The notes beneath the pieces were generated by a model. The model was not told where the DNA came from, searched no databases, and worked only from the letters and a program-made list of their open reading frames with translations. A stretch of 64,000 nucleotides of DNA, taken from the NCBI GenBank assembly GCA_016708345.1, contig JADJFX010000007.1, positions 96,339 to 160,338 on the forward strand. Reading direction: 5' to 3'. Origin of the DNA: Candidatus Rhodoferax bjergmarkensis (lineage in GTDB: Bacteria > Pseudomonadota > Gammaproteobacteria > Burkholderiales > Burkholderiaceae_C). A program made the translations under genes and the position numbers. The stretch's first letter is position 1; each line of letters starts with the position of its first letter. This document shows, in pieces, positions 19,013 to 46,209 of the stretch.

Positions 19013-20850
19013 GGAATACGAGACACCACATGAGGCCAAGTATCGCACCTTAGAAGCGCCTGCGATCCGCGTGAAGCAGTCCATTTAGCGCCCCACCTGG
19101 CAGATTCACCACCAGGGCTTGATGTTCAAGAGCGTGATGTGCTGGGCGCGGCATGTACCGAGCGCAGAGACATCCCGCAGCGATTCAAAATCGCCACTTT
19201 GACCTCTCACCAGTTGATACGCTGATCGACCTCAAAGTCGGGTACCGGTTGAGCTGCCCCATCCCAGTCGGTTGCCCAATCTGGCTCGGTTTGCGCCCCG
19301 TCATCCATCTGCGCATCACCGCAGTCATCCCACAGCGGTGGTCCGCGCGCTGGGGCTATGTGCGGGGGCTCCGAGTCCACCCCGATGTGATCCAGAATCC
19401 GCCTGATCTGCCTGCCCTCGGTGACAAAGGCGATCAGGCGCATCTGCCCGCCACATAGCGGGCACAGCAACGGGAACACCTCGTAGATGCGGGCGATCAG
19501 CACCGCCCACAGGTAGTGGGCCGGGCGCTTGGTCGGTACGGGTTCGGGCGTGGGTGAAATTGCATTGCCCAGCGGCGCGGGGCGGTGTGCGTCATCGCCC
19601 GTGGCATCTGGCTGGGCATCCGCCATGGCCGTAACCGCTGAGCGCAGCGGCGAGTTCGGCGCCAGCACACCAAAGTAGCGATGCCGGTGGGTGCGCGGTG
19701 GTGGCACCAGGGCGGCAATGCGGTCGATCAGCTCCAGCGCTGTGAGGTGCAGTTCGTCCACCTTGGCGCCACGCTTGTCACTGGTGGGCTCGCTGCGCTG
19801 TTTGGCGCAGCGGTACACCAGGGCTGCGCCCTCTTTGCGAAGGCGTTCCATGGCAAAGGGTGGGCGGGCGCAATACCTCAGCAAGCGCTCCAGGGCTGCG
19901 CGGTCGTCTGCTTCAATGCAGACACCGGCGTCCACCGAGAAGCCGCTGTGCTGGTAGGCCAGCATCTCTTTGGCATCAGCCTTCTCGATCAGGCCCCGGC
20001 CGACGAAGGCGCGCAGGATGCGTCGGCGCAAATCGGTCTGTACCTGGGCCACAGCGGTCTCGTCGATAGCACTGGCCGGGTGAAAAACGATGCCCGGTGG
20101 TGAGGATTGGACGTCGGTTTGGCCCACCACCGCCACCGGTATTTCCTCAAACACGCCATCGACCACACAGACGTGGAAGTGCACATGAGCGTTCAGGCTG
20201 GAGCCGAACCGGTGGATAAACGCCACGGCGCCGATGTGCTTGGCCGCCTTGTCCACATTTGCCGCACCGGGGCTGTGGGTCTGCAGGCTTTGCGCAATGA
20301 CCCGCAGGAAGATGCGCAGCACCATGTTGAGCACTGCCCCGTCACGCTGCATGAAATAGCGCAGTCGCTTCGGCACCGACAGCACCCACTGGCGCACCGG
20401 CAGGCGGGGGAAGACGTGGTCGCAGAGGTGCGCCGCCGTCTCCACCATGCGCCGGGTGTTGCACGAGGGGCACACGCCCCGGCCTTTGCAGGAATAGGCC
20501 ACGAAGTAGTCGTGCCCGCAGTCATCACACCACGCCCGGGCAAAGCCATGGGCGAAGATGCCGCATTCCAGATATTTGCGAAAGGCTTGGCGGACATAGG
20601 GCCTGGGGCTGTGGTGGTCGCCCTGGCCATCGAACTGACCGGCACTGGCCAACTCAAACCAGGTCTCAAAATGCTCGGCTATGGTTTGGTACAGCAGGGT
20701 CCGCTCGGGGTGGTGCCGGTTGTAGAGCTTTGGCTTTGTACCCGCTTGCCCGCCCGCGTGTGAATGCGCTTGCGTTGGGCGTGCAGTGGCGGGCATGGGG
20801 CAGTGCCAGCGTGGGCTGGGTGCCTGATGATACTGGGTTTATATCCAGCT
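19013..20850 (-). mobile_element. ISCR-type (IS91 family) element, copy 1 (type C)
   Basis: Intact 529-aa ORF 19207-20796 with Zn motifs CDDC/CKGRGVCPSC, HUH motif HVHFH and single-Tyr RLLRYCARPP; degenerate ori end near 19011. Confidence 0.92.
20833..20848. promoter_or_regulatory. LexA (SOS) box upstream of transposase copy 1
   Basis: taCTGGGTTTATATCCAGct fits CTG-N10-CAG. Confidence 0.7.
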
Positions 20851-20853
20851 TCG

Positions 20854-21182
20854 TCACAGGCAGAGCCAACCACTGGGCGCGCAAATAACGTCATCATTGT
20901 GGACTTTCCCGACCCCACCAATTTTTCCATCGGCAAGCTCTACAACAAACGCCTCGTCATTGTCAAAGCGCCAGTGAAAGCGGGAAGGCTGGGCGGTGAA
21001 GAACGAAACCGCCTTGTAGGGTGTCACCGTGCCCACGGTGCGCAGTACTCGCGCGGTTTTCACTTCGATCGCCCACAATGACATCGGCCTCAAGGGGTAG
21101 GGTCCATCCAACCCTGCGGGCTGTCGAGCGATGCCTGGGTGATGGTGTCCGGGTTGGGGGGAATCTGGGGAAGACGGGACAT
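20854..21182 (-). pseudogene. Small cupin-like protein, frameshifted, ending at the copy 1 boundary
   Basis: AAGGAG RBS before ATG at 21182; FTAQPSRFHWRFDNDEAF...DDVICAPSGW resembles cupin_3 motifs. Confidence 0.35.
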
Positions 21183-21309
21183 GGGGGAACTCCTTATGGA
21201 TGAAAAGAGAGGTACGGTTTGCTAGTAAATATGACGAATGTCATATTCGTGCAAATGCGGGGTAGCATTGCTGACGCCCGGGGGTCGTCATAGTTGGAAT
21301 GCGAAACAC

Positions 21310-21923
21310 ATGTCCCTGAACACCCGCGAAAAAATGATTTCTGGCGCCGCCGACCTGATCAGTCGCCGGGGGATCAATGGCACCAGTCTGCGCAACGTGG
21401 TAGACCACACGGGCACCCCGCGCGGCTCGCTTGCGCATCACTTCCCGGTGGCAAGATGCAGATGCTGGAAGAGGCCATCGCCTTTGCGTCCGACGCGGTG
21501 GCCGTTCCGCTGCACAGCGCCGTGGCGGACAAGGGCGTGGTGGCGGGCTTGCGCAGCTTCATTGGTTGGTGGCGTGCGCTTCTGCTTGCGTCGGACTTTG
21601 AAGCCGGTTGCGCCGTGATGGCCGTGGCCGTGGAGCCCCTGACCAGTACGGAGGGTGCCGCGCCCGAATCACCGGGCCAGCCCGAAAAATTGAGGGCTTT
21701 GGCACACGCCGCCTTTGGTCGTTGGGAAACCATCCTGACTGATGCCTTGTGCCAAGAGGGTGTGGACACCGCCCAAGCCAAGCGCTTGGCGGTATTGTGC
21801 GTGGCCGCGATTGAAGGCACGGTCGCCCTCTGCCGCGCCGCACGCAGCCCGCAAGCCTTGGACGATGTACTGCAGGAATTGGAAGCCCTGCTCGTGGTGC
21901 GCATCGCAAGCGCCCAGGCATAA
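21310..21923 (+). CDS. TetR-family regulator (one frameshift near 21445)
   Basis: TREKMISGAADLISRRGINGTSLRNVVDHTGTPRGSLAHHFP HTH; GCAVMAVAVE. Confidence 0.85.
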
Positions 21924-21947: not shown

Positions 21948-22898
21948 CTACGCAGCCACCGGCTGGCGTGCCTGCGCCGCCGGTGCTACCCGCATTAGCC
22001 CTTCCTGCGCAACGGAGGCCACCAGCCTACCCTGCTGAAAAAATTCACCTTTGCACAGGGCCCGTCCTCCACCGATATTGCGGCACTCGACCACGTACAG
22101 CAACCAGTCATCCATGCGAAACGGGCGGTGGAACCACAGCGTGTGGTCCAGGCTGGCCAGGCGTACTTCGCCGCGCGCCAGACTCAGCGGGTAGGGGGCA
22201 ATGGCGGTCACCAGCAAACCATGGTCGGACGCATATGCCAGCAAGGCCTGGTGCAAGGCCATATCTCCAGGCAGGTTTTGGCAGGCCTTGAGCCAGATGC
22301 GGGTCGGCCCTTCTGCACGAACCGGGTTGAGCATGTCCAGCGGCGTTTCACGCCGGTACTCAATGCCTAAAGGGGCCAATCGCAAGGCGCGCTGGTGCAC
22401 GGGCCATTGTTCGGCGGTCTGGGCCCGGTACGCGGTCTCACTTTGCAGTCCGCTGGGGCCAACCACCGCTGGCTGCGGCGGGTGGGCGTCCATGCCGGGC
22501 TCCGGCACCTGGGCCGATACGGTGGCTTCAAAAATGACGCCGCCGCTTTGCGATGCCGTCACCCGGCGGGCGCTGTAGTTTTTCCCGTCGCGCAAGCGCT
22601 CTACGGCATAGTCGATGGGCGCTTGCACCCCGAGTGATAGGAAATATGCATGCAGGGAATGCAACTCCCCCTGCGCGGGCAAGGTGGCTCTGGCGGCCAT
22701 CACCGCCTGCGCCAACACCAGCCCGCCATAAACCGAGGGTGTTCCGATGTCATGGCAGGGCCCGGTAAAACGACCGTCGCCAACGGGCTTCACCGCAACG
22801 ATCGTTGGTAAATCTCGCCCGGCCAGGCCTTCGTCGGCAACGGCAGCAAGGGGCGCGCGCAATACGCTGGAAATGGAAGTATCAGTTGGCATGTGCAA
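21948..22898 (-). CDS. tesB: Acyl-CoA thioesterase II
   Basis: VYGGLVLAQA, LHSLHAYF, LAYASDHGLL, ASLDHTLWFH. Confidence 0.88.
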   Translation of the reverse strand: MHMPTDTSISSVLRAPLAAVADEGLAGRDLPTIVAVKPVGDGRFTGPCHDIGTPSVYGGLVLAQAVMAARATLPAQGELHSLHAYFLSLGVQAPIDYAVERLRDGKNYSARRVTASQSGGVIFEATVSAQVPEPGMDAHPPQPAVVGPSGLQSETAYRAQTAEQWPVHQRALRLAPLGIEYRRETPLDMLNPVRAEGPTRIWLKACQNLPGDMALHQALLAYASDHGLLVTAIAPYPLSLARGEVRLASLDHTLWFHRPFRMDDWLLYVVECRNIGGGRALCKGEFFQQGRLVASVAQEGLMRVAPAAQARQPVAA

Positions 22899-23001
22899 TT
22901 CGGGATTTGGAGAAAACCCAAATTATGTCAACTGACATAACACACCACTGTCGCGCAGGTTCCGCACGCTTCAGCCGTGGCCAATTGATGCCGCGAAACT
23001 G

Positions 23002-23469
23002 CTATGCAGACGGCGCGCTGGACTCGGGTGGGCTGCTTGCAAGGCCGGGGCCGGGCTCGACCTGCATGTCAAAGGGTGAAAGGGTTTCCTTGCATTCGGA
23101 GCACGTCAGCACGGCGGTGGTGATATGGCCGCAGTTGCGGTGGCGGTGCAGGGCCGGGGGGCCTTCGGGGCCGACCATCCAGCGGTCGCCCCACTGCTTG
23201 AGCAAAAGGATGACGGGATAAAGGTCGCGCCCTTTTTCGGTGAGGCGGTATTCGAAGCGGGGTGGATTGTTCTGGTACTCCCGCCGCTCCAAAACGCCTT
23301 CGGCCACCAGCCGCTCCAGCCGGTCGGCCAGGCGGTGGCGTGACATACCCAGGCTGCGCTGCAGCTCGTCAAAGCGCCGAATGCCCAAAAAAGGCGTCGC
23401 GCACGATCAGGCCAGTCCAACGGTCGCCCACTACCGAGAGCGCACGGGCAATCGAGCACGGCGTTTCAT
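23002..23469 (-). CDS. HxlR-family winged-helix regulator (frameshift near 5' end)
   Basis: RRFDELQRSLGMSRHRLADRLERLVAEGVLER..YQNNPPRFEYRLTEKGRDL. Confidence 0.85.
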
Positions 23470-23578
23470 GAATTTCATCCCATCGCATGTCGCCAGTGTA
23501 ACAACTAAGTTCTGTTTTGGAACTATGATGCGATCAAGTTCCGTTTTGGAACTTACAACTTTTGACAAGGAATTCACC

Positions 23579-24367
23579 ATGACATCCACAGCCTCCCCCA
23601 TTTCGCGCGAAGTTCGCGGCCATGTCTTTCTGATTGGCCTGAACCGCGTGGACAAGAAAAACGCCTTCAACCTGGCCATGCTGCGCGAGCTGTCCGCCGC
23701 CATTGGCGAGTACGAAGCCAACCCCGAGCTGCGCGCTGCCGTCCTCTTCACCCATGGTGAAGACTTCACCGCAGGCCTGGACTTGATGGATGTGGCACCC
23801 GCCATGGCCGGTGACGCAGGCATCGTTGAAGAAGGTGCATTCGATCCCGTCGGCGTGCACGGCAAGACCCGCACCAAGCCGCTGGTGTGCGCCGTGCAGG
23901 GCCTGTGCCTGACCCTGGGCATTGAATTGATGCTGGCCTCCGACATCGTGGTGGCAGGTGACGACACCCGCATGGCCCAGATCGAAATCAAGCGCGGCAT
24001 CTTCCCCTTTGGTGGCGCCAACCAGCGTTGGGTGGCAGCTTCGGGCTGGGGCAACGCCATGCGCTACCTGTTGACGGGCGACGAACTTGACGCGGCCACC
24101 GCCTACCGTATCGGTATGGTGCAGGAAGTGGTCAGCCCCGACCAAGTCCTGTCCCGCGCGCTGGAGCTGGCCAATACGATTGCCGCCCAGGCCCCACTGG
24201 GTGTGGCCGCCACGCTGCGCTCGGCACGCATAGGTGTGGAGGAAGGCCAGCAGGCTGCATTCCAGCATTTGGTGCCGGAAATTCACAAGCTAATGGTGAC
24301 GGAAGACGCGCGTGAAGGTGTGATGTCCTTCATGCAGCGCCGCGCCGCGCAGTTCAAGGGCCGGTAA
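23579..24367 (+). CDS. Enoyl-CoA hydratase/isomerase (crotonase family)
   Basis: FTAGLDL, GIELMLASDIVVA, EIKRGIFPFGG. Confidence 0.9.
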   Translation: MTSTASPISREVRGHVFLIGLNRVDKKNAFNLAMLRELSAAIGEYEANPELRAAVLFTHGEDFTAGLDLMDVAPAMAGDAGIVEEGAFDPVGVHGKTRTKPLVCAVQGLCLTLGIELMLASDIVVAGDDTRMAQIEIKRGIFPFGGANQRWVAASGWGNAMRYLLTGDELDAATAYRIGMVQEVVSPDQVLSRALELANTIAAQAPLGVAATLRSARIGVEEGQQAAFQHLVPEIHKLMVTEDAREGVMSFMQRRAAQFKGR

Positions 24368-24378
24368 GGCAAGCTGCC

Positions 24379-24807
24379 ATGAGCCCATCTGTATTACTCA
24401 CCATCCATCTGTTCGCGGTTGCGTTCTGGCTCGGCGTCGTGGGCGTGGAATACCTGCTGGAACGCGGCCGCGCCCATAGCCACCAACATGGCTTCAACGT
24501 GGCACGCCTGCACTTTCAGATCGACACATGTCTGGAAATGCCGACCTTTCTGGTGGTGCTGGCCACAGGGTTGGCCCTGCTGGAGCCGCAGCGCATGAGT
24601 GGGCTGTATGCGCTCAAGGTGGCGGCGGGCGCGTTGGCCGTGCTGGGCAACGTGCTGTGCGTTGTCCCCATCGTGTTGCGCAAACGCGCCGCCGAGCGCC
24701 AAGACCTGGGCGCCGTCATCCGTTACTCCCGCTGGGTGGATCGGATTTCCGCCACCGCCATTCCTGCCGGGCTGGCTGCGTTTGCACTCGGCTGGGCCTT
24801 GCCCTGA
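24379..24807 (+). CDS. Small integral membrane protein
   Basis: About four hydrophobic segments; in operon between the crotonase and the ACAD. Confidence 0.7.
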   Translation: MSPSVLLTIHLFAVAFWLGVVGVEYLLERGRAHSHQHGFNVARLHFQIDTCLEMPTFLVVLATGLALLEPQRMSGLYALKVAAGALAVLGNVLCVVPIVLRKRAAERQDLGAVIRYSRWVDRISATAIPAGLAAFALGWALP

Positions 24808-24888
24808 CTGGTTGCCACCGTACAACCACTCCCCGCGTGGCCCCAAAGCAGGGGCCACGCTTCCTATCCCTCTTCACCGACACCCCCC

Positions 24889-26688
24889 ATGAATCTGTAC
24901 CAAGCCCCCCTGCGCGACATGCGCTTTGTATTGCACGAACTGCTCAACGTGGAGCAGCACTACACCTCCATTCCCGCCTTCGCCGAAGTCAACCGCGAAC
25001 TGGTGGACAGCATCCTGGACGTGGGCGCCCGTTTCGCCGAGCAGGAACTGTCGCCCTTGAACCGCAGCGGCGACGAAGAAGGGTGCCACTACCACGACGG
25101 AACCGTCACCACCCCGAAAGGTTTCAAGGAGGCCTACGCCCAGTACCTCGACCTGGGGCTGGGCTCGCTGTCCGCCCCGCAGGCGTATGGAGGCCAGGGC
25201 CTACCGCCCTCCCTGGACATTGCCGTGGGCGAAATGAATGGCACCGCCAACTGGTCCTGGGGCATGTACCCCGGCCTGTCGCGGGGCGCCATTGAAACCA
25301 TCAAGGCACATGGCACCGATGCGCAAAAGAACACCTACCTGTCCAAAATGACCAACGGCATCTGGACTGGCACCATGTGTTTGACCGAGTCGCATGCCGG
25401 CTCGGACCTGGGGTTGATCCGCACCAAGGCCATTGAGCAGGACGACGGCTCCTACGCCCTGCACGGCACCAAGGTATTTATCTCGGCGGGGGAACACGAT
25501 ATGGCCGACAACATCGTGCACATCGTGCTGGCCCGTTTGCCCGACGCCCCCAAAGGCACCAAAGGTATTTCGCTCTTCATCGTCCCCAAATACCTGCCCG
25601 ATGCTGGTGGCGAGGTGGGGCCCCGCAACGGCGTGCACTGCGGTGGCATTGAGCACAAGATGGGCATCAAGGCGTCAGCCACCTGCACCATCAACTTCGA
25701 TGGCGCCACGGGTTTTCTCATCGGCGAGCCCAACAAAGGGCTGCAGTGCATGTTCACTTTCATGAACGCGGCGCGGGTGGGCACCGCCGTGCAGGGCGTC
25801 TGCGCAGCCGAAGGGGCCTTCCAGGGTGCCCTGCGCTATGCGAAAGACCGCGTGGCCATGCGTTCACTCAACGGCCCTAGCCACCCGGAGCTGGAGGCCG
25901 ATCCCATCATCGTCCACCCCGCCGTGCGGACCATGCTGCTGACACAAAAAACCTTTGCCGAAGGTGGCCGCGCACTGGTGTACTGGCTGGCGACGCAAAT
26001 CGACCTGGCCGCGCACGCCTCCACCCCCGAAGCGCGGCAGCAGGCGGACGACCTGATGAGCATTCTGACCCCCATCGCCAAGGCATTCCTCACCGAAATG
26101 GGCAGTGAAGCCGCCAAACATGGTGTGCAGGTGTACGGTGGGCATGGGTTCATCCGCGAATGGGGCATGGAGCAAATCGTGCGCGACACCCGCATCGCCT
26201 GCCTGTACGAAGGCACCACCGAAATCCAGGCCTTGGATTTACTTGGCCGCAAAGTACTGCAAACACAGGGCGAATTGCTCAAAAAATTCACCCGCATCAT
26301 TCACAAGTTCTGCGAGGCCCACGCAGCACAAGCGGGCATGGACGAATTCGTCGCCCCACTCCAGTCATTGAACAAAACCTGGAGCGACCTGACCATGGAC
26401 ATTGGCATGAAAGCACTGATGAACCGCGATGAGGTCGGTGGCAGCGCCGTGGACTACCTGTATTTTTCGGGCTATGTCACCCTGGCCTATATATGGGCCT
26501 GGATGGCCGAGACGGCCTCGCGTCGTCTGTCCGAAAACCCCGAGCAAGCCGACTTCTACCACGCCAAGGTGCAAACCGCGCAGTTCTACTACCGCAAATT
26601 GCTGCCCAGGGCGCAGGCGCACCTTGCGTGCATTCAGGGTGGTTTGGTGGTCGTACAGCAAATGCCTGTCGCAGCATTTGCGTTTTGA
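24889..26688 (+). CDS. Acyl-CoA dehydrogenase (about 600-aa class with C-terminal extension)
   Basis: WTGTMCLTE, GTKVFISAG, GIEHKMGI, YEGTTEIQ. Confidence 0.93.
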   Translation: MNLYQAPLRDMRFVLHELLNVEQHYTSIPAFAEVNRELVDSILDVGARFAEQELSPLNRSGDEEGCHYHDGTVTTPKGFKEAYAQYLDLGLGSLSAPQAYGGQGLPPSLDIAVGEMNGTANWSWGMYPGLSRGAIETIKAHGTDAQKNTYLSKMTNGIWTGTMCLTESHAGSDLGLIRTKAIEQDDGSYALHGTKVFISAGEHDMADNIVHIVLARLPDAPKGTKGISLFIVPKYLPDAGGEVGPRNGVHCGGIEHKMGIKASATCTINFDGATGFLIGEPNKGLQCMFTFMNAARVGTAVQGVCAAEGAFQGALRYAKDRVAMRSLNGPSHPELEADPIIVHPAVRTMLLTQKTFAEGGRALVYWLATQIDLAAHASTPEARQQADDLMSILTPIAKAFLTEMGSEAAKHGVQVYGGHGFIREWGMEQIVRDTRIACLYEGTTEIQALDLLGRKVLQTQGELLKKFTRIIHKFCEAHAAQAGMDEFVAPLQSLNKTWSDLTMDIGMKALMNRDEVGGSAVDYLYFSGYVTLAYIWAWMAETASRRLSENPEQADFYHAKVQTAQFYYRKLLPRAQAHLACIQGGLVVVQQMPVAAFAF

Positions 26689-26756: not shown

Positions 26757-26834
26757 TTACCCCTGCAACTCAAACACCGCCATGCTTTCCACATGCGCCG
26801 TGTGGGGGAACATGTTCACCACGCCCGCCATGAC
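26757..26834 (-). pseudogene. rlmD: Last ~25 codons of the 23S rRNA m5U methyltransferase RlmD
   Basis: MAGVVNMFPHTAHVESMAVFELQG*; directly abuts oriIS of copy 2. Confidence 0.8.
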
Positions 26835-28755
26835 GGATAGGCCATTCAACCGCCCTAGCCGAAGTATCGCGCCCCGGTATAGCCTTCGAGCCCCGTGAAA
26901 ACCCTGAGTTTCTTGCCCGCGTTGCTGGTTCACCAGCAAAATGCACCGTCGCCAGAGCCTATAGCGCTGCTGCGGGTGCGTCGGGCGCAGGCCTACCCTG
27001 CAGCGATTCAAAATCGTCGCTTCGCCCATTCACCAACTGATGCGCTGGTCTACCTCGTAGTCGGGGCTGGTTGCTCTGCTAAATCCCAACCCGACTCGCT
27101 TTGCACCCCTTCACCTGTCTGCGCATCACCACCGTCCTCCCACAGCGGTGGCCCGCGTGCCGGGGAGATGTGCGGGGGATCAGTCTCCACCCCGATGTGG
27201 TTCAGAATCTTCTTGATCTGCGTGCCCTCGGTAATGAACGCAATCAGACGCATCTGGCCACCGCACTTTGGGCACAGCAGCGGGAAAACCTCGTAAATGC
27301 GGGCGATCAAAACGGCCCACAGGTAGTGCGCTGGGCGCTTGGGCGGCACCGGCTCTGCAGGCCCGCTCTGGCCTGGGAGCACATTGCCCAGCGGTGCCAC
27401 ACCAGGCGCACCCTCCCCCGTGGTGCTCGGCTGCGCCGTGGCCGGGTGGGCCGGTGCTGCAAGCGCTGTGACCGCAGCCCTGAGCGGCGAATTCGGGGCC
27501 AGCACACCAAAGTAGCGGTGCCGATGCGTGCGTGGTGGCGGCACCAGGGCTGCTATGCGGTCGATCAGCTCCAGCGGTGTGAGGGTGATTTCGTCTACCT
27601 TGGCACCGCGCTTGTCACTGGTGGGCTCGCTGCGCTGCTTGGCACAGCGGTACACCAGGGCTGCGCCCTCTTTGCGAAGGCGGTCCATGGCAAAGGGCGG
27701 GCGGGCGCAGTAGCGCAGTAAGCGCTCCAGCGCAGCGCGGTCGTGTGCTTGGATGCACACACCGGCATCCACCGAGAAGCCGCTGTGCGTGTAGGCCAGC
27801 ATGTCTTTGGCGTCACAACTCTCCAGCAGGCCCCGAGCGACGAAGGCGCGCAGGATGCGTTTTTGCAGGGTGGTCTGCACTTGGGCAACGGCATCCGCAT
27901 CGATGGCGCTGGCCGGGTGGAAGATGACGCTCGGCGCAGGGGCTGGAGGAACATCCGCGTCGCCCTCGCCCGCCACCGCCTCAATCACCCCATCGACCAC
28001 GCAGACGTGGAAATGCACATGCTGGTTCAGGCTGGAGCCGAATCGGTGGATAAAGGCGATGGCCCCGATGTGCAGGGCGGCCTTGTCTACCTGTGCCGCA
28101 CCGGGGCTGTGGGTCTGCAGGCTTTGCGCGATGACCCGCAGAAAAATACGCAGCACCATGCCCAGCACTGCCCCCATCGCGCTGCATGAAGTAGCGCAGC
28201 CGCTTTGGCACCGACAGCACCCACTGGCGCACCGGCAGGCGGGGGAAGACGTGGTCCGTGAGGTGTGCCGCCGTCTCCACCATACGCCGGGTGTTGCACG
28301 AGGGGCACACGCCACGGCCTTTGCAGGAAAAGGCCACAAAGTAGTCGTGGCCGCAGTCGTCACACCAGGCTCTGGCAAAGCCGTGGGCAAAGATGCCGCA
28401 TTCCAGATATTTGCGAAAGGCTTGGCGGACATAGGGCTTTGGGGTGTGGTGGTCGCCCTGCCCGTCGAACTGGCCTGCGCTGGCCAACTCAAACCAGGTC
28501 TCAAAGTGCTCGGCTATGGTTTGGTAGAGCAGGGTTCGCTCAGGGTGGTGCGGGTTGTAGAGTTTGGATTTGCTGCCCGATTGGCCACCCGCTGGCCCAC
28601 CCGCGTGCGGGTGTGAGCAGGCTTGCGCGGTACGGGCGGCGACAGGCATGGTGCAGCGCCAGAGCGAGCGTATTGGCTCGGGCTGGGTGCACCATGTTAC
28701 TGTTTTTATATCCAGTTATATCCGCTTGGTATGGCTTGACAGGCCATCTGCAGAC
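26835..28755 (-). mobile_element. ISCR-type element, copy 2 (type A)
   Basis: oriIS GGATAGGCCATTCAACCGC; transposase in ORFs 27981-28649 and 27050-28504 (frameshifts); hairpin ATGGC-TTGACAG-GCCAT at 28731-28747. Confidence 0.92.
28700..28715. promoter_or_regulatory. LexA box, copy 2
   Basis: taCTGTTTTTATATCCAGtt. Confidence 0.8.
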
Positions 28756-28760
28756 ACTCA

Positions 28761-28834
28761 TTCACTTCTGAATTGATAACTACCTGCGCACGCCAGGCGT
28801 GCGCAAAGGCACTATTTCTATGCATAAACCCGGC
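28761..28834. repeat. REP-like repeat, copy c
   Basis: Perfect hairpin GCGCACG-CCAGG-CGTGCGC. Confidence 0.85.
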
Positions 28835-30732: not shown

Positions 30733-32668
30733 GGATAGGAAATTCAACCGCATGAGGCCAAGTATGTCACGGGTTTGGGGCCACGAAACACGTCTGGCCC
30801 TGGCAATTTGAGCGCTCGCAGCCGCTCAACGACGAGGCCTTGGGTTGCAAGATGGATTTGGGGCTGGCGCGCACGCAGCTGCTCCCCGCAGCAGTCGAAA
30901 TCACTGCTGGGGTCCATCACCAATTGATGCGCTGATCCACCTCGTAGTCTGGGGCGGGTTGTGCCGCAATGTCCCAATCTGGCTCGACATCAGCACCCTC
31001 GCCCACCTGCGCGTCACAACCCTCCCACAGCGGTGGCCCACGTGCCGGGGCGATGTGTGGGGATCGGACTCCACCCCAATGTGATTGAGAATTTGCAGGA
31101 TATCGGCGCGGTGGGTGATGAACGCAATCAGGCGCATCTGCCCACCGCACATTGGGCACAGCAGCGGGAATACCTCGTAGACGCGTGCAATCAGCACCGC
31201 CCACAGGTAGTGGGCTGGACGCTTGGGCGGCACCGGCTTGGAAGGCTCGGTCTGGGTTGGGAGTGCGTTGCCTTGCTGCACAACCCCAAATGCGCCCACG
31301 CACGCACCCGTGCTGGCTGGCTCGGCCTGCGCAGTGACCGGTTGCGCAGGTAGCACCTGTGCCAGCGCTGTGACCGCACAGCGCAGTGGCGAATTCGGGG
31401 CCAGCACACCAAAGTAGCGGTGCCGGTGCGTGCGCGGCGGCGGCACCAAGGCCGCAATGCGGTCGATCAGCTCCAGCGGTGTGAGGTGCAGTTCGTCTGC
31501 CTTGGCACCGCGCTTGTCACTGGTGGGCTCGCTGCGCTGTTTGGCGCAGCGGTACACCAGGGCTGCGCCTTCTTTATGCAGCCGATCCATGGCAAAGGGT
31601 GGGCGCGCGCAGTAGCGCAGCAGCCGCTCCAGTGCCGCGCGGTCGTGGGCTTCGATGCACACACCCGCATCCACCGAGAAGCCGCTGTGCTGGTAGGCCA
31701 GCATGTCTTTGGCGTCACAGCTCTCCAGCAGCCCCCGGCCGACGAAGGCGCGCAGGATGCGTTTTTGCAGGGTGGTCTGCACTTGGGCCACGGCGGCCTG
31801 GTCAATAGCGGTGGCCGGGTGGTAAATGACACCCGGCGAAGATGCTTGCACCTGGGCAGCAGCCCCGCCCACGCCCGCCACCGCCTCAAACACCCCATCG
31901 ACCACGCAGACGTGGAAATGCACATGCCCGTTCAGACTGGAGCCGAATCGGTGGATAAAGGCGATGGCGCCGATGTGCAGGGCCGCCTTGTCTACTTGTG
32001 CCACACCGGGGCTGTGGGTCTGCAGGGTTTGCGCGATGACCCGCAAGAAGATGCGCAGCACCATGTTCAGTACCGCCCCGTCACGCTGCATGAAGTAGCG
32101 CAGGCGTTTGGGCACGGACAGCACCCATTGGCGCACCGGCAGACGCGGGAATACGTGATCGGTGAGGTGCGCGGCCGTCTCCACCATGCGCCGTGTGTTG
32201 CACGAGGGGCACACGCCCCGGCCTTTGCAGGAATAGGCCACAAAGTAGTCATGCCCGCAGTCATCACAGCGGGCGCGGGCGAAGCCATGGGCAAATATGC
32301 CGCATTCCAGGTATTTGCGAAATGCTTGACGGACATAGGGCTTTGGGGTGTGGTGGTCGCCCTGGCCGTCGAACTGGCCGGAACTTGCCAACTCATGCCA
32401 GGTCTCGAAGTGTTCGGCAATGGTTTGGTACAGCAGGGTTCGCTCAGGGTGGCGCGGGTTGTAGAGCTTGGGCTTGGCGCCCGATTGGCCACCCGCTGAC
32501 CCTCCCGCGTGCGGGGCCGGGTGGGCGTGCGGATGCAGTAGCGTTTGCGCGGAACGGGCAGCGACAAGCATGATGCGGTGCCAGAGCGAGCGTGTGTGCT
32601 CGGATTGGCTGCACCATAGTACTGTTGTTATATCCAGCTATATCAACCTGAATACCGTTTACGGAGGT
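30733..32668 (-). mobile_element. ISCR-type element, copy 3 (type B)
   Basis: oriIS GGATAGGAAATTCAACCGC; transposase ORF 30901-32571 with a frameshift near the 3' end; nested hairpin ACCT..CCGT-TT-ACGG-AGGT at 32646-32668. Confidence 0.92.
32622..32637. promoter_or_regulatory. LexA box, copy 3
   Basis: taCTGTTGTTATATCCAGct. Confidence 0.78.
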
Positions 32669-35225: not shown

Positions 35226-35227
35226 CC

Positions 35228-36910: not shown

Positions 36911-37023
36911 CGGTGCTTGTTATGAAAGTTATGAACTCGCATTTTACGAACGAGAACGCCAAGGGCATGCTTGCGGCCATTGTCATCAGCACATTCATTT
37001 TTCACCCACGAAAGCCGCACACC

Positions 37024-37908
37024 ATGCACCGTCGCCAATTCCATCTTCACGCGCTGAGCGCCTGCGCCGCCGCTGCCGCATTGCCGCTGACCGCCTGCTC
37101 CACAGCGCAGAGTCAAAGCGCATCCGAGCCATGGTCCCGCATCGAAAAACAATCCACCGGACGCATGGGCATCGCCGTGCTCGACACCGCCGATGACAAG
37201 TGGGAGGGGCAGCGTCTCGATGAGCGCTTTCCCATGTGCAGCACCTTCAAATGGCTTGCGGCGGCCCATGTACTGCAACGTGTCGATCAGGGCCGCGAAC
37301 AGTTGGATAGACGCATCCGTTTCGAGCGCAAGGCGCTGATCGAATACTCGCCCATCACCGAACCGCAAGCAGGCAAGAACGGCATGACGCTGGCCGAGCT
37401 GTGCCACGCAGCCATCACCGTGAGCGACAACACCGCCGCCAATCTGATTCTGGAAACGCTGGGCGGTCCGCAAGGCATGACGGCATTTGCGCGCTCGCTC
37501 GGTGACGAGGTCACACGTCTCGATCGCTGGGAGCCCGATCTGAACGAAAGCAAACCCGGCGATCCGCGCGACACCACCTCGCCGCGCGCCATGGCCACGC
37601 TGCTGCAGCAACTGGTGCTGCGCGATGTGCTTTCGCCGCGCAGCCGCGAGCTGCTGGTTCAGTGGATGCGTGCGACCAGCACCAATCGCAACCGCCTGGC
37701 CGCAGGTCTTCCGGAAGGCTGGAAGATCGGCAGCAAGACCGGCTCTTCAGGCACGGGATCGGTCAACGATGTGGGCGTGTTCTGGCCACCGAATCGCCCG
37801 CCCATCATCGCGGCGGTCTACATCACACAAGGCACAGGCAGCACCAAGAACATCGAGCCCGCGATTGCCGCCGTCGCGCAGCACATCACGCGCGGCGCTG
37901 CACGCTGA
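37024..37908 (+). CDS. Class A serine beta-lactamase (Tat/lipoprotein-type signal)
   Basis: MCSTFK (S70), SDN, WEPDLNE (E166/N170), KTG; RRQF twin-arginine motif and LTAC lipobox. Confidence 0.95.
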   Translation: MHRRQFHLHALSACAAAAALPLTACSTAQSQSASEPWSRIEKQSTGRMGIAVLDTADDKWEGQRLDERFPMCSTFKWLAAAHVLQRVDQGREQLDRRIRFERKALIEYSPITEPQAGKNGMTLAELCHAAITVSDNTAANLILETLGGPQGMTAFARSLGDEVTRLDRWEPDLNESKPGDPRDTTSPRAMATLLQQLVLRDVLSPRSRELLVQWMRATSTNRNRLAAGLPEGWKIGSKTGSSGTGSVNDVGVFWPPNRPPIIAAVYITQGTGSTKNIEPAIAAVAQHITRGAAR

Positions 37909-37927: not shown

Positions 37928-38381
37928 TCAAAGCCCGAGCAGCCCTTCCACCAGCTCGCGCCGCGCGAGCTTGCGTGCGTTGCCGCGCTGCCAGTGGTAG
38001 ATGTCATAACCGTTGGAATACAGCAGCGAGCCATCGGCCAGCACGTCGAACTGCGCAACATGGCTTGCTATCTCTTCGGGCGCGGCATTGCGGCCCGCCT
38101 GCGCGATGAGCTTCCACGACGCAGGCACGAGGTTGCCCGCGTATTCGGGATCGTTGCGCACCTTGGAGAGTTCGATGCGGCGGCCATGCAGCCACAGCGT
38201 GCCGAGGTCCTGATCGAGCTCCGGCGTGCGCGGGCCACCGGCCGAACGCAGCGGCTCCTTGCCATAGAGCATCGAGAACACGTTCAGATAACCGAACACC
38301 GCCTTGCCCAGACGCAGCGGCATCAACAGCGCATCCTTGGCCGCGCCGCCCGCCTTTTCGTGCAGCGGCTTGTCGGCGGAC
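37928..38381 (-). pseudogene. C-terminal fragment of a hypothetical protein cut by oriIS of copy 4
   Basis: Open reading with its own stop at 37928 that runs into oriIS. Confidence 0.6.
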
Positions 38382-40307
38382 GGATAGGAAATTCAACCGC
38401 ATGAGGCCAAGTATGTCACGGGTTTGGGGCCACGAAACACGTCTGGCCCTGGCAATTTGAGCGCTCGCAGCCGCTCAACGACGAGGCCTTGGGTTGCAAG
38501 ATGGATTTGGGGCTGGCGCGCACGCAGCTGCTCCCCGCAGCAGTCGAAATCACTGCTGGGGTCCATCACCAATTGATGCGCTGATCCACCTCGTAGTCTG
38601 GGGCGGGTTGTGCCGCAATGTCCCAATCTGGCTCGACATCAGCACCCTCGCCCACCTGCGCGTCACAACCCTCCCACAGCGGTGGCCCACGTGCCGGGGC
38701 GATGTGTGGGGGATCGGACTCCACCCCAATGTGATTGAGAATTTGCAGGATATCGGCGCGGTGGGTGATGAACGCAATCAGGCGCATCTGCCCACCGCAC
38801 ATTGGGCACAGCAGCGGGAATACCTCGTAGACGCGTGCAATCAGCACCGCCCACAGGTAGTGGGCTGGACGCTTGGGCGGCACCGGCTTGGAAGGCTCGG
38901 TCTGGGTTGGGAGTGCGTTGCCTTGCTGCACAACCCCAAATGCGCCCACGCACGCACCCGTGCTGGCTGGCTCGGCCTGCGCAGTGACCGGTTGCGCAGG
39001 TAGCACCTGTGCCAGCGCTGTGACCGCACAGCGCAGTGGCGAATTCGGGGCCAGCACACCAAAGTAGCGGTGCCGGTGCGTGCGCGGCGGCGGCACCAAG
39101 GCCGCAATGCGGTCGATCAGCTCCAGCGGTGTGAGGTGCAGTTCGTCTGCCTTGGCACCGCGCTTGTCACTGGTGGGCTCGCTGCGCTGTTTGGCGCAGC
39201 GGTACACCAGGGCTGCGCCTTCTTTATGCAGCCGATCCATGGCAAAGGGTGGGCGCGCGCAGTAGCGCAGCAGCCGCTCCAGTGCCGCGCGGTCGTGGGC
39301 TTCGATGCACACACCCGCATCCACCGAGAAGCCGCTGTGCTGGTAGGCCAGCATGTCTTTGGCGTCACAGCTCTCCAGCAGCCCCCGGCCGACGAAGGCG
39401 CGCAGGATGCGTTTTTGCAGGGTGGTCTGCACTTGGGCAACGGCATCCGCATCGATGGCGCTGGCCGGGTGGAAGATGACGCTCGGCGCAGGGGCTGGAG
39501 GAACATCCGCGTCGCCCTCGCCCGCCACCGCCTCAATCACCCCATCGACCACGCAGACGTGGAAATGCACATGCTGGTTCAGGCTGGAGCCGAATCGGTG
39601 GATAAAGGCGATGGCCCCGATGTGCAGGGCGGCCTTGTCTACCTGTGCCGCACCGGGGCTGTGGGTCTGCAGGCTTTGCGCGATGACCCGCAGAAAAATA
39701 CGCAGCACCATGCCCAGCACTGGCCCGCCCTGCTGCATGAAGTAGCGCAGCCGCTTTGGCACCGATAGCACCCACTGGCGCACCGGCAGGCGGGGGAAGA
39801 CGTGGTCCGTGAGGTGTGCCGCCGTCTCCACCATACGCCGGGTGTTGCACGAGGGGCACACGCCACGGCCTTTGCAGGAAAAGGCCACAAAGTAGTCGTG
39901 GCCGCAGTCGTCACACACCAGGCTCTGGCAAAGCCGTGGGCAAAGATGCCGCATTCCAGATATTTGCGAAAGGCTTGGCGGACATAGGGCTTTGGGGTGT
40001 GGTGGTCGCCCTGCCCGTCGAACTGGCCTGCGCTGGCCAACTCAAACCAGGTCTCGAAGTGCTCGGCTATGGTTTGGTAGAGCAGGGTGCGCTCAGGGTG
40101 GCGCGGGTTGTAGAGTTTGGATTTGCTGCCCGATTGGCCACCGCTGGCCCACCCGCGTGCGGGTGTGAGCAGGCTTGCGCGGTACGGGCGGCGACAGGCA
40201 TGGTGCAGCGCCAGAGCGAGCGTATTGGCTCGGGCTGGGTGCACCATGTTACTGTTTTTATATCCAGTTATATCCGCTTGGTATGGCTTGACAGGCCATC
40301 TGCAGAC
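38382..40307 (-). mobile_element. ISCR-type element, copy 4 (B/A hybrid)
   Basis: Ori half matches copy 3, upstream half matches copy 5; frameshift near 39910. Confidence 0.92.
40252..40267. promoter_or_regulatory. LexA box, copy 4
   Basis: taCTGTTTTTATATCCAGtt. Confidence 0.8.
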
Positions 40308-40312: not shown

Positions 40313-40386
40313 TTCACTTCTGAATTGATAGCTACCTGCGCACGCCAGGCGTGCGCAAAGGCACTATTTCTATGCATAAACCCAGC
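40313..40386. repeat. REP-like repeat, copy e
   Basis: Same hairpin as copy c. Confidence 0.85.
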
Positions 40387-40470: not shown

Positions 40471-40897
40471 TTAGCCCCGCATCCACGTGTGAAAGCGCCC
40501 CAGCCAGACCAGCACTTGGTGGGGCGCATGGGCTCGCTTCCATTCCCCGGCCGCATATTTGTTGGCTTCAGCCAATGTTGGGTAGGTGTGGATGGTACCC
40601 AGAATCTTGTTCAGCCCCAGCCCGTGTTTCATGGCCAACACAAACTCCGCCAGCAAATCGCCCGCGTGTTCACCGACGATGGTCACGCCCAATATTCGGT
40701 CTTTGCCGGGCACCGTCAGCACCTTGACAAAACCGTGCGCGGTGCCGTCGGCAATGGCGCGGTCCAGGTCATCAATACCGTATTGTGTGACTTCATAGGC
40801 AACGCCCTTCTCTTTGGCGTCTTGCTCATTGAGGCCCACCCGCGCCACTTCGGGCTCGATAAAGGTGGCCCACGGCACCACCGAATAGTCCACCTTG
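40471..40897 (-). pseudogene. Last ~140 codons of another allele of the oxidoreductase
   Basis: KVDYSVVPWATFIEPEVARVG...HQVLVWLGRFHTWMRG with a TAA stop (the full gene has HKVLAW and TGA). Confidence 0.85.
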
Positions 40898-40936: not shown

Positions 40937-43749
40937 TCAAGCCTGCACAGCAAACTTGCCCGGCAGGGTGATGACGGTCTCAAAGGCTCGCAGGTCGGCG
41001 TCAACGTTGTTGTCCAGCAAATGGATTTCAATGCTGCCGCCTTCGTTTTCCAGAAAGCCCTTGACCGCGTCCATGCCCACGCCGCGTCCGGACACTTCGG
41101 TCACTTTTTCGGCGGTCGAGAAGCCGGAGGCAAAAATCATCTTCGCCACCGTTTCAGGTGATGCCGCATTGCCTTCGGGTAGCATGTTTTCTCGATCGCC
41201 ATTTTGCGAATGCGGCCAATGTTCAGGCCCCTGCCATCGTCGCGCAAGCTCAATTTGAGCTTGTCGTCTTCGACGCTCATGGCCAGCTGAATGTTGCCCA
41301 CCTGCGTCTTGCCCGCCGCTTGGCGCACCTCGGCGGTTTCCAGGCCATGGTCAATCGAGTTGCGCAGCAGATGCACGAACAGGTTTTTCAGCAGACCGCC
41401 GATCTGGTTGCGCACCACAATGCCTTGGTCGTCAATGCGGATCACCGGCGGCTCCTTGCCCAGCTCCTTGGCCAGCGAGGGGATGGACTCGATCACTCCA
41501 GAAAGAATCTTGTCGATTTTCTCGGTGCCAATCAGGCTCAGCGTCTTGCCAATTTGGGACAGCGCTGCGCGCATGGCGGCGAGGTCGGTGGCATCCACCG
41601 AATCGACCAGTTGTATCGACTGCGCCACCTGTTCTTTGTCAACCAGCAAGAACTTTTCAACGCCGCCCCGGCGCCCTGGTCCTTTGCGACCCAGCGTGTG
41701 GCTGTTGACCTTGGCGTATTCGTCCACAAGGTTTTTGACCTGCGCCAGTTGCTGCCCCAGCATCTCGGAGTCCCAGACCATCTCGGGGTTCTGACGCAAC
41801 TCATGGTAGGTCTGTTCCGTCTCGTGCACCACGTTGGTCATGTGCAGCAAACCGTAGGTTCTGGCATTGCCCTTGATGGTGTGCATGTTGCGGAACAGTA
41901 CGCCGATGACGCCGTCATCCTTTTGGGCGGTTTTCTGGGTAATGACCTCGTTCTCAGCGACAAACTTGTACGAACTGTCGACGAACTCCTGGAATTTTTC
42001 CTGACTGACGGCCAGGATTTCACCAATGATTTCGAGCTCGCGTTTTTGCGCATTGGCTTCTTTGCCCAAGCGTTTGAGCTCGGTGACGTCGCGGGCGCAT
42101 AGCATGATTTTCTCAACCACATCGTTGGCATCGCAAATGGGCGACCAACTCAGCTCGATCGATTTGACCCGGCCATCTGGCATCGTTTTATCAAATTCGG
42201 TGACCATCAAGTGTGAGTTGAATTCGAAGTTCATCCGGTCCTCTCCAACGCAGGCATCCACCGCCGCTTCTACTTGCGACAGAGGGTCGGAGCCCAGGTT
42301 GGTGTTGGAGAACACCAGTTTCATCAGATTCTTGCCGGCAATCTCGTGCGTTTCAAACATGGTTTCCAGGTAGGCCGAGTACTCGGGGTGGATCACGTTG
42401 TTTGCCAATACGGTCAACACGCCCTGTGGCATGTTCTGCATCATGGCCTGGATGTCGTGGGTCTTTTGGGCCAACTGGGCGGTGCGTTCGGTGACCAGGT
42501 GCTCCAGATTGTCGTTGAGCACCTTCAGATCCTTCACCAGAATCTTGTTTTCCACGAAGGTGTTGGCGAAGGTATTGGAGGCCACATAAAGCATGGTGCC
42601 AACAAATATGGCGGTGCCAAAAAACACCATGGCAAAGCTGCTGATGACGCCCAATGAAAGCAGGATATCGTTGAATCCGGTCACCAAGATGGACGAGATA
42701 CCAACCAGAAGAATGGCGGAACCAGGTTTCCGATGCTGGATCCCTCGAATCAGCTGATAACAACCACCGAATCCGCCTAACAGGACGCCGATGAATAGAA
42801 AGGTTTTCACTGGCTGGAAAAGTTCCAGATTGGGGTGAATGGTCATCGTGGCAATGTACAAACCCGAAGCGCCCAGCAGCACACCGCCAACCCAGTTGAT
42901 CTTGGGCGTGAACTTGTGAAAAAACTGCGTGAAGATGTAGAACAAAAAGATGGCGCAAATACCGGGGTAATGCAGGTAAAGCATGGTCTCCGGCTCAAAC
43001 AGTTTGACGAAATAATCGGCTGGCGCGCCAAAAAATGGAAAGATCAAAATACTGGAAGAGCCGCAAACCAGATAAAGCGCGTACCGGGTCTTGGCGAAAA
43101 CCAGTAGGAAAAAGAATCCAAAAAACAAAATCACGTACGAGATGATGATGCGCGCCTCACCGCCCAGGAGCTGGTAGATGACCACACCACGGTCATGCTG
43201 GTCGTATTTGCGCAATTCAAAGGGCAATTGGTATACCCCCACCATCAGGGGCGTATCAATGCGCATGGCCAGCACGTGGTGCGGCTGACTGATCTTGAAA
43301 CGCACAGGAATGGCCTGAGTTGAAAAATACGGCTCAACATTGATGTTGTTGGGGCGACGGTAAATTTCTTGACCATCGACGTAGATGTTGACTCGCGCCA
43401 TGTAGGCATTGACCAAAAGGACGACTTCTTGCCCCACCAGCGAGGGATGGAATTCGAAGTGCCCGCGGTACCAACCTATGGGAAATACCTTTTTGTCGTT
43501 ATAGACACCTTTCCACGGCCCCGGTGCCTTGGCCAGTCGCCAGCTGGAAGTATCAAGGTTGACGTCCTTGTTTTGGGGGGAATCGTCGCGGGTAAAAAGC
43601 CACTTGCCGCTCAATTTCAGTGGCTTGTCCAGACTTTCAATCTGGATTTTGCAGGAGGTGCAGCCGACTTGATGCGCTGGTGAGTTGGCCGCTGCTTTTG
43701 CGAACAAGGAGCAAAAAATCAGCAGCAGCAATGCGAGTCTCGAAAGCAT
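40937..43749 (-). CDS. Membrane sensor kinase: 7TM-DISM-type sensor + PAS-like + Hpt + CheA-type HATPase (frameshift near 41160)
   Basis: Sugar-binding-like LSGKWLF..GWYRGHF, about seven TMs, Hpt LFRNMHTIKGNAR, HLLRNSIDHG, DDGRG, IFASGFSTAEKVTEVSGRGVGMDAV. Confidence 0.8.
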
Positions 43750-43892: not shown

Positions 43893-43917
43893 AGTGGCTG
43901 GGGGCAACCCAGCCACT
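43893..43917 (-). terminator. Intrinsic terminator after the chalcone-isomerase-like gene
   Basis: Perfect 10-bp stem AGTGGCTGGG/CCCAGCCACT followed by TTGCGTT on the minus strand. Confidence 0.6.
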
Positions 43918-44023
43918 GGCGGTAAGCTAAACATGCACTATTTTGGTGAGCCAAACTTGTTGGCCAAATACAGCGCCGCAAAAGCGGTTTGAAGCAAGCG
44001 CTCCGTTTAGAAAAATCTCCGGC

Positions 44024-44282
44024 TTATTGGATGCCCAGCAATTGATCCTTGAGTTTCCAATTGGTCGGCTGTTGCCCCAGCCAGACGCTGGCGATGGCAT
44101 AGAAAAATTCGGGCTCCTTGAATGGCTCGCCCTGCTGCTTGCCCTTGCCGTTAACCACCAGGCCGGTGCCCGGAATCCAGTCCAGCGTCACGACGTCACC
44201 CTCGACAAAAGTCTTGGCTGTGGAAAAAATCTCACCCATGCGCATCAGGCCCGGAATGAGTTTGGACAACTCACTGCGGGAC
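44024..44282 (-). pseudogene. Chalcone-isomerase-like protein, C-terminal fragment
   Basis: LDWIPGTGLVVNGKGKQQGEPFKEPEFFYAIASVWLGQQP; cut by oriIS of copy 5. Confidence 0.7.
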
Positions 44283-46209
44283 GGATAGGCCATTCAACCG
44301 CCCTAGCCGAAGTATCGCGCCCCGGTATAGCCTTCGAGCCCCGTGAAAACCCTGAGTTTCTTGCCCGCGTTGCTGGTTCACCAGCAAAATGCACCGTCGC
44401 CAGAGCCTATAGCGCTGCTGCGGGTGCGTCGGGCGCAGGCCTACCCTGCAGCGATTCAAAATCGTCGCTTCGCCCATTCACCAACTGATGCGCTGGTCTA
44501 CCTCGTAGTCGGGGGCTGGTTGCTCTGCTAAATCCCAACCCGACTCGCTTTGCACCCCTTCACCTGTCTGCGCATCACCACCGTCCTCCCACAGCGGTGG
44601 CCCGCGTGCCGGGGAGATGTGCGGGGGATCAGACTCCACCCCGATGTGGTTCAGAATCTTCTTGATCTGCGTGCCCTCGGTAATGAACGCAATCAGACGC
44701 ATCTGGCCACCGCACTTTGGGCACAGCAGCGGGAAAACCTCGTAAATGCGGGCGATCAAAACGGCCCACAGGTAGTGCGCTGGGCGCTTGGGCGGCACCG
44801 GCTCTGCAGGCCCGCTCTGGCCTGGGAGCACATTGCCCAGCGGTGCCACACCAGGCGCACCCTCCCCCGTGGTGCTCGGCTGCGCCGTGGCCGGGTGGGC
44901 CGGTGCTGCAAGCGCTGTGACCGCAGCCCTGAGCGGCGAATTCGGGGCCAGCACACCAAAGTAGCGGTGCCGATGCGTGCGTGGTGGCGGCACCAGGGCT
45001 GCTATGCGGTCGATCAGCTCCAGCGGTGTGAGGGTGATTTCGTCTGCCTTGGCACCGCGCTTGTCACTGGTGGGCTCGCTGCGCTGCTTGGCACAGCGGT
45101 ACACTAGGGCAGCGCCCTCTTTGCGAAGGCGGTCCATGGCAAAGGGCGGGCGGGCGCAGTAGCGCAGTAAGCGCTCCAGCGCAGCGCGGTCGTGTGCTTG
45201 GATGCACACACCGGCATCCACCGAGAAGCCGCTGTGCGTGTAGGCCAGCATGTCTTTGGCGTCACAACTCTCCAGCAGGCCCCGAGCGACGAAGGCGCGC
45301 AGGATGCGTTTTTGCAGGGTGGTCTGCACTTGGGCAACGGCATCCGCATCGATGGCGCTGGCCGGGTGGAAGATGACGCTCGGCGCAGGGGCTGGAGGAA
45401 CATCCGCGTCGCCCTCGCCCGCCACCGCCTCAATCACCCCATCGACCACGCAGACGTGGAAATGCACATGCTGGTTCAGGCTGGAGCCGAATCGGTGGAT
45501 AAAGGCGATGGCCCCGATGTGCAGGGCGGCCTTGTCTACCTGTGCCGCACCGGGGCTGTGGGTCTGCAGGCTTTGCGCGATGACCCGCAGAAAAATACGC
45601 AGCACCATGCCCAGCACTGGCCCGCCCTGCTGCATGAAGTAGCGCAGCCGCTTTGGCACCGATAGCACCCACTGGCGCACCGGCAGGCGGGGAAGACGTG
45701 GTCCGTGAGGGTGTGCCGCCGTCTCCACCATACGCCGGGTGTTGCACGAGGGGCACACGCCACGGCCTTTGCAGGAAAAGGCCACAAAGTAGTCGTGGCC
45801 GCAGTCGTCACACCAGGCTCTGGCAAAGCCGTGGGCAAAGATGCCGCATTCCAGATATTTGCGAAAGGCTTGGCGGACATAGGGCTTTGGGGTGTGGTGG
45901 TCGCCCTGCCCGTCGAACTGGCCTGCGCTGGCCAACTCAAACCAGGTCTCAAAGTGCTCGGCTATGGTTTGGGTAGAGCAGGGTTCGCTCAGGGTGGCGC
46001 GGGGGACCTTGTAGAGTTTGGATTTGCTGCCCGATTGGCCACCCGCTGGCCCACCCGCGTGCGGGTGTGAGCAGGCTTGCGCGGTACGGGCGGCGACAGG
46101 CATGGTGCAGCGCCAGAGCGAGCGTATTGGCTCGGGCTGGGTGCACCATGTTACTGTTTTTATATCCAGTTATATCCGCTTGGTATGGCTTGACAGGCCA
46201 TCTGCAGAC
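44283..46209 (-). mobile_element. ISCR-type element, copy 5 (type A)
   Basis: oriIS identical to copy 2; 541-aa ORF 44478-46103 with local compensated frameshifts. Confidence 0.92.
46154..46169. promoter_or_regulatory. LexA box, copy 5
   Basis: taCTGTTTTTATATCCAGtt. Confidence 0.8.

Follow-up and report, generated by a model that had tools for sequence, protein, structure and literature searches.

A 64-kb window (64,000 nucleotides, nt) of the Candidatus Rhodoferax bjergmarkensis genome [GenBank assembly GCA_016708345.1; contig JADJFX010000007.1, positions 96,339 to 160,338] carries five homologous transposase genes of the IS91/ISCR family, all on the minus strand, and each is preceded by a 16-bp palindrome composed of CTG and CAG arms 10 nt apart around an AT-rich spacer. 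The five palindromes are probably genuine SOS operators of the beta/gamma-proteobacterial type, through which LexA would repress transcription of the transposase genes in five insertion sequence (IS) copies related to ISCR8/ISPps1. A pattern search for CTG-N10-CAG placed the 16-mers at 20833, 28700, 32622, 40252 and 46154, in every case on the higher-coordinate (upstream) side of the gene, and so recovered the coordinates and sequences of an original prediction that had named these sites as LexA boxes. The genes and predicted boxes are listed below, with the score of each 20-mer against a LexA weight matrix and the distance from the 16-mer to the conserved ATG.

19207..20796, minus strand: transposase copy A, ISCR8-like, 529 amino acids (aa), the sole clean frame, 76% aa identity to ISPps1/ISCR8
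20831..20850, minus strand: predicted LexA box type A, AGCTGGATATAAACCCAGTA on the transposase strand, 22.2 bits, 36 nt upstream of the ATG
27050..28649, minus strand: transposase copy B1, broken frame (open reading frames 27050-28504 and 27981-28649)
28698..28717, minus strand: predicted LexA box type B1, AACTGGATATAAAAACAGTA, 26.9 bits, 50 nt upstream of the ATG
30901..32571, minus strand: transposase copy C, 556-aa open frame, with the last ~50 aa in another frame than in A and B3
32620..32639, minus strand: predicted LexA box type C, AGCTGGATATAACAACAGTA, 21.2 bits, 50 nt upstream of the ATG
38566..40201, minus strand: transposase copy B2, broken frame, mosaic (open reading frame and alignment comparison)
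40250..40269, minus strand: predicted LexA box type B2, 26.9 bits, 50 nt upstream of the ATG
44478..46103, minus strand: transposase copy B3, open frame of 541 aa that is out of frame in two short patches close to the N-terminus
46152..46171, minus strand: predicted LexA box type B3, 26.9 bits, 50 nt upstream of the ATG

Read on the transposase strand, the box is CTGGATATAAACCCAG in type A, CTGGATATAAAAACAG in type B and CTGGATATAACAACAG in type C. The five boxes form a single column block in the alignment upstream of the five genes, as expected from the claim that they occupy an equivalent position, and the predicted TATAA(A/C) hexamer was found within all five on the transposase strand. The three type B copies are 98-100% identical around the box, and the window therefore contains three types rather than five independent events. 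The type A 20-mer recurs unchanged in many related loci. It had also been proposed that the surrounding sequence diverges between types while the box is kept. This applies to approximately 35 nt upstream of the box and fails downstream, where the leader is conserved as well.

Pfam Y2_Tnp (PF04986) was predicted in all five open reading frames and Zn_Tnp_IS91 (PF14319) in four of them. The HVHFH motif is present, and a single HUH/Y2 rolling-circle transposase with an N-terminal zinc-binding domain is the arrangement that characterises ISCR/IS91 elements. The reading frames also share a conserved N-terminal extension of 15-40 aa. B2 is a recombinant, in that its 3′ part including the oriIS region (38380-39008) is 100% identical to C (30731-31358) and its promoter and 5′ part are of type B. 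At the DNA level the copies are ~80% identical to genes annotated as "IS91-like element ISPps1 family transposase" on plasmids of Comamonadaceae, Pseudomonas and others, and the copy A protein is 76% identical to the ISPps1 transposase of Acidovorax plasmid p2-T1. The region upstream of the p2-T1 gene agrees in every letter with the published ISCR8 terIS sequence (PMC13393415, Fig. S1), and ISPps1 is therefore ISCR8. The NCBIfam models for the ISCR clade (NF052416, 265.8 bits against a cut-off of 925) and for IS91 (NF033538, 98 against 125) scored below their cut-offs, and the identities to ISCR8/ISPps1 (80% nt, 76% aa) fall short of the ≥98% nt identity that would place the copies in a named ISCR. 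The elements are thus unnamed relatives of ISCR8 and not ISCR8 itself. When the 25-kb cargo region was searched against plasmids, the transposase genes were the sole matches, and a distant search of plasmids with the type B promoter region returned only the coding N-terminus and no annotated promoter twin.

The window contains 28 matches to the bare CTG-N10-CAG pattern, compared with 27 expected from shuffles; for want of enrichment, a weight-matrix test was used instead. Significance rests on the full 20-mer and not on the loose pattern. The matrix covers 20 positions, was compiled from 27 E. coli operators (Lewis 1994; Fernandez de Henestrosa 2000) and is approximate. With scores of 21.2-26.9 bits, the five boxes are the sole sites in the window that reach at least 14 bits, and 200 first-order Markov simulations of the window gave a mean of 0.155 hits at ≥14 bits and none at ≥21. 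Scored with the same matrix, the validated boxes of ISCR1, ISCR2 and ISCR8 range from 20.2 to 22.4 bits and E. coli operators from 13 to 30.

Scanning the whole 4.96-Mb assembly placed the five boxes among its ten best LexA-like sites. Fourteen sites score ≥18.7 bits and six of these are IS boxes, namely the five in the window and one belonging to a type B copy on contig C39. Two of the other top sites precede lexA and one each precedes an IntI-like integrase gene and a umuD-like S24 peptidase gene, indicating that the matrix recovers the SOS regulon of the host; further high-scoring sites precede comM-like and parE-like genes. The host LexA, encoded at G000:C2:43290-43937, is canonical (TIGR00498, 230.6 bits, over the cut-off), and the second box of host lexA, AACTGGATATCAAGACAGTG, differs from the IS box AACTGGATATAAAAACAGTA by only 3 mismatches, of which the spacer has two and the flank has one. 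The box of the IntI-like integron integrase gene (G000:C9:51427) scores 27 bits, lies 31 nt upstream of the gene, and is the best SOS site of the genome aside from the IS copies.

LexA control of this kind has already been published for the sister elements ISCR1, ISCR2 and ISCR8, and the window elements are additional members. Lallement et al. (J Bacteriol, June 2026; preprint November 2025; PMC13393415) studied LexA boxes in the terIS regions of the three elements. In electrophoretic mobility shift assays, purified E. coli LexA retarded the promoter fragments of all three elements but not the mutants in which CAG had been changed to ACT. Deleting lexA raised the expression of lacZ fusions 18.2-fold for ISCR1, 1.6-fold for ISCR2 and 4.1-fold for ISCR8; the corresponding increases were 48.5-, 14.5- and 10.6-fold with a mutated box and 7-, 2- and 3.2-fold on treatment with mitomycin C. 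The assays were made in E. coli, the reporter strains included lexA-deletion, recA-deletion and lexA3 derivatives, and nine full rcr8 sequences were all that were available to those authors (PMC13393415).

As in the Prcr promoters of ISCR1, ISCR2 and ISCR8, which occur in beta/gamma-proteobacterial hosts, a box of the CTGT-N8-ACAG class is found in the terIS-proximal region directly upstream of an HUH/Y2 transposase gene. The spacers of ISCR1 (ACATAACCAC) and ISCR2 (ATGTAAACAC) resemble those of the window elements (ATATAAAAAC, ATATAAACCC), whereas the ISCR8 box, TACTGTGCATTTGTACAGTA, differs, so that the window spacers are nearer those of ISCR1 and ISCR2. The window elements differ further from ISCR8 in the transposase (~76% identical), in the 15-40 aa N-terminal extension, in a leader predicted to sequester the start codon, and at the outer end, where a host REP-like hairpin stands in place of the CAAGGCCCGAAC...GTTCGGGCCTTG hairpin of ISCR8. 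Control of ISCR1, ISCR2 and ISCR8 is known from experiment, whereas the window elements are known from their sequence. The ISPps1/ISCR8 elements of catabolic plasmids (pADP-1, pCNB1, IncP-1; Comamonadaceae and Pseudomonas) belong to the same IS91/ISCR subgroup, have a related oriIS end, and likewise flank accessory genes in multiple copies. However, the ~80% nt identity is confined to the gene, the promoter/terIS region being unmatched at the DNA level, and unlike these plasmid-borne elements the window copies lie on a 214-kb contig beside genes for a class A beta-lactamase, a UvrA paralogue and a glycosyltransferase.

A second parallel is provided by the integron integrases (intI), for which Guerin and colleagues reportedly described in 2009 a LexA box and SOS control. 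As would hold for the window elements, LexA there controls a gene-capture recombinase, and the host genome has its own IntI-like gene with a 27-bit box, but IntI is a tyrosine recombinase acting on cassettes and not a rolling-circle transposase.

A survey that scanned one genome per species identified 80 related loci, mostly in Comamonadaceae (Rhodoferax, Polaromonas, Candidatus Aalborgicola, Limnohabitans and Acidovorax). Approximately 50 of the 80 carry a box of ≥14 bits at the homologous distance from a coding anchor. Among the 34 distinct 20-mers, positions C3, T4, G5, A17 and G18 are nearly invariant, the spacer is AT-rich and positions 13-15 are free to vary, which is the contact pattern of LexA. 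The boxes occur in at least four promoter/leader contexts: A-like, B/C-like, "D" (AACTGTATAAATGTACAGTT; with an ISCR8-like outer hairpin) and ISCR8/22-like. In the A-like elements the 35 nt directly upstream of the box are scrambled between loci, the box is retained and the downstream leader is conserved. Copies with an open frame, defined as ≥440 aa after the anchor, retain the box in 19 of 22 cases, compared with 24 of 51 broken copies (Fisher p = 0.0018). This enrichment is supportive and not decisive, as the copies share ancestry and several of the source assemblies are long-read metagenome-assembled genomes (MAGs). In one Polaromonas MAG (L009), the box is shifted to -254 by a run of CGCAAC/CGCAAT hexanucleotides that lies ~100-190 nt before the QTIAEHF anchor, within the N-terminal extension of the transposase.

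The region between box and gene and the ends of the elements were defined by comparison of the copies, as follows.

28647..28697, minus strand: leader of type B1, from box to ATG, containing a predicted hairpin, with equivalents in A, C, B2 and B3
26833..26855, minus strand: candidate oriIS-side end of B1, at which the copies cease to be homologous (transposase strand, ...TTGAATGGCCTATCCGT)
28768..28817, minus strand: REP-like GC-rich hairpin at the outer terIS-side boundary of B1

The predicted leader hairpin (-33.1 kcal/mol and z -5.4 in type B) would pair the start codon with a CAT that immediately follows the box. Across 19 family sequences, 78% of cells are paired, compared with 22-33% in slid controls, but covariation is slight, with only two covarying pairs. 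RNAalifold did not recover the hairpin from the family leader sequences. The structure may act as a translational lock on top of LexA. In type B, a CTGTCA followed after 16 nt by a TATAAC that ends at the first base of the box can be picked out by eye, an arrangement that is not seen in types A and C. The TATAA(A/C) inside the box is the sole -10-like sequence common to all types, and where the promoter would lie relative to the box is a matter of prediction.

Downstream, homology between copies ends 3′ of the stop codon at a common ...CCTATCCGT. Equivalent ends were found at 30731 (C), 38380 (B2) and 44281 (B3); that of A, at 19011, has diverged. This common 3′ end fits an oriIS. Upstream, B and C share sequence up to ~100 nt beyond the box, and hairpins equivalent to that of B1 lie at 32679-32728 (C), 40320-40369 (B2) and 46222-46271 (B3); two further copies of the segment, at 11780-11829 and 15665-15714, stand alone. 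Copy A is truncated 36 nt upstream of the box and is without the REP-like outer hairpin. With this exception, the copies show the organisation of ISCR elements, with a distinct putative oriIS downstream, a hairpin at the putative terIS upstream and ends that carry no inverted repeats. On the terIS side of B and C, the outermost 50 nt belong to a host REP-type repeat (...TTGCGCACG-N10-TGCGC.AGCAGCTATCAATTCAGGAG...) present in at least 57 genome copies, most of them not near an IS. A terIS boundary first drawn at AAATAGTGCC...CAGGAGTG was withdrawn because that sequence is the same repeat. Either the IS may target or end at REPs, or it may carry a REP as its terIS hairpin.

Taken together, the box sequences, the host SOS sites, conservation across the family and the published experiments on ISCR1, ISCR2 and ISCR8 (PMC13393415) strongly support the original prediction that the five boxes are LexA operators. 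In an undamaged cell, a dimer of the host LexA would occupy the box and block initiation of transposase transcription. After DNA damage, RecA bound to single-stranded DNA would promote self-cleavage of LexA, and a promoter that is already weak would be derepressed. By analogy with the sister elements, the host's own LexA would be expected to bind these boxes, and SOS induction might then raise transposition or movement of the cargo, as had also been proposed.

Several observations weigh against this interpretation. A strict sigma-70 scan around the type B box found no promoter, neither TATAAA nor TATAAC ends in the conserved T, and the types have no conserved -35 region in common. A structured leader stands between box and ATG and could dominate control, and the gap between the two is 36-50 nt, compared with 3-10 nt in ISCR1, ISCR2 and ISCR8 (5 nt in ISCR8). 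Both half-sites of type A are CTGG/CCAG instead of CTGT/ACAG, although the G and C at positions 4 and 13 also occur in the second host lexA box and in the intI box. Frames are disturbed in four of the five copies (B1 and B2 frameshifted, out-of-frame patches in B3 and C), which may stem from assembly indel errors of the kind suggested by the contig C39 copy (124 gaps in 2176 nt). The surveyed copies are related by descent and their box counts are consequently not independent. Finally, the derepressed ISCR promoters had very low activity, the increase for ISCR2 was below 2-fold, and transposition of an ISCR has, according to the same authors, never been demonstrated experimentally (PMC13393415).

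The near identity of the type B copies around the box, the disturbed frames and the failure to find a canonical promoter are also what would be seen if the boxes were inherited relics, once functional in an ancestor or another host, retained because the copies are young and regulating nothing now. In keeping with this, some decayed relatives (L050, L053, L058 and L067) have mutations in the arms of the box. However, the arms are kept in all three window types and in 34 variants elsewhere despite the scrambled 35 nt upstream, the box is enriched in open-frame copies, the LexA system of the host matches, and copy A is intact. Loss of function is possible for individual decayed copies but misfits the family pattern, and as a general explanation it is unlikely.

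Still less probable is that the palindrome serves chiefly in transposition, as a portion of terIS or as a hairpin to which the transposase binds, and that its likeness to a LexA box is secondary. It does lie within ~100 nt of the terIS-side end, and several truncated relatives have their breakpoint at the box or no more than a few nt away (L008, L026, L032, L037 and L080, and the relics C3:358650 and C3:448701). However, its stem would be just 4-5 bp with an 8-nt AT loop, and the GC-rich REP-like hairpin further out is a better terIS candidate. The breakpoints are spread over -143 to -203 and do not fall at one nucleotide; on mapping, this scatter over ~60 nt also led to rejection of the box as the exact IS terminus, an idea raised by four relatives that break right after it. 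Conservation falls on exactly the positions read by LexA, and the ISCR8 box binds LexA in vitro and loses binding on mutation of CAG (PMC13393415). Chance matches in AT-rich promoter DNA, suggested by the unremarkable count of the loose pattern, can be set aside, given five sites of ≥14 bits, all at the homologous position and among the ten best of the genome, against the simulated mean of 0.155 and no simulated hit at ≥21 bits.

Between and beside the copies lie the following genes.

21948-26688: fatty-acid oxidation genes, between IS copies
29316-30635: MGT-like glycosyltransferase gene, between IS copies
32746-35346: UvrA paralogue, 866 aa, between copies C and B2
36913-37908: class A beta-lactamase gene (NF033103, 326 bits), between copies C and B2
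41137-43749: CheA-like fragment, between IS copies
46376..47815, minus strand: complete pyridine-nucleotide-disulfide oxidoreductase gene, 480 aa, directly upstream of the B3 terIS side

The beta-lactamase fits no named family, the best named model being ACA with 298 bits against a cut-off of 592. Parts of the oxidoreductase gene are repeated upstream of B2 (the last 141 aa, 40474-40896) and of B1 (the last 49 aa, 28922-29068), and a frameshifted copy (15818-16988) adjoins the solo REP-like end at 15665-15714. The 3′ end of such a gene is also found upstream of the terIS side in canonical ISCR8/ISPps1 (L083:2200-2630). Nested flanks with a common terIS-side endpoint would be expected from read-through of terIS, but could arise as well from recombination and later truncation.

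Further derivatives are present elsewhere in the genome. The copy on contig C39 (G000:C39:5418-7529), with an identical box and a transposase scored as "45% identical", was considered as independent evidence and dropped, as it is an indel-ridden type B copy (89% nt identity) whose 124 gap positions in 2176 nt suggest an assembly-quality problem or decay. In two relics on contig C3 (358650-359800 and 448500-448760) the LexA box is deleted or cut after AACTG. A type B derivative of ~150 bp resembling a miniature inverted-repeat transposable element (G000:C8:184700-184900) lacks a transposase gene but has the leader hairpin and a degenerate box, along with the REP-like end and an end resembling oriIS (AATGCCTATCCGTTCC).

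More tentatively, and with the balance somewhat against it, the LexA box may be ancestral to the ISCR clade and kept by selection, and not a trait special to three clinical or plasmid elements, having lasted through four or more promoter and leader architectures in a large environmental radiation found mostly in Comamonadaceae. In the form seen here, with a leader that would hide the start codon and a REP-like terIS, SOS control and a translational lock might together gate the rolling-circle capture of flanking genes, in this window the oxidoreductase gene in its nested lengths, beside a class A beta-lactamase gene. The 34 box variants constitute a natural mutational series that, together with the distinct leader architecture, could be used to test what limits ISCR expression.

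If the boxes work as they do in ISCR1, ISCR2 and ISCR8, SOS control would reach a large and mostly environmental family, found mainly in wastewater and freshwater Comamonadaceae, that adjoins catabolic and resistance genes. An integron integrase gene in the same genome also has a LexA box, and the finding, if true, would strengthen the view that DNA-damaging agents, some antibiotics included, raise expression of several gene-capture systems at once.

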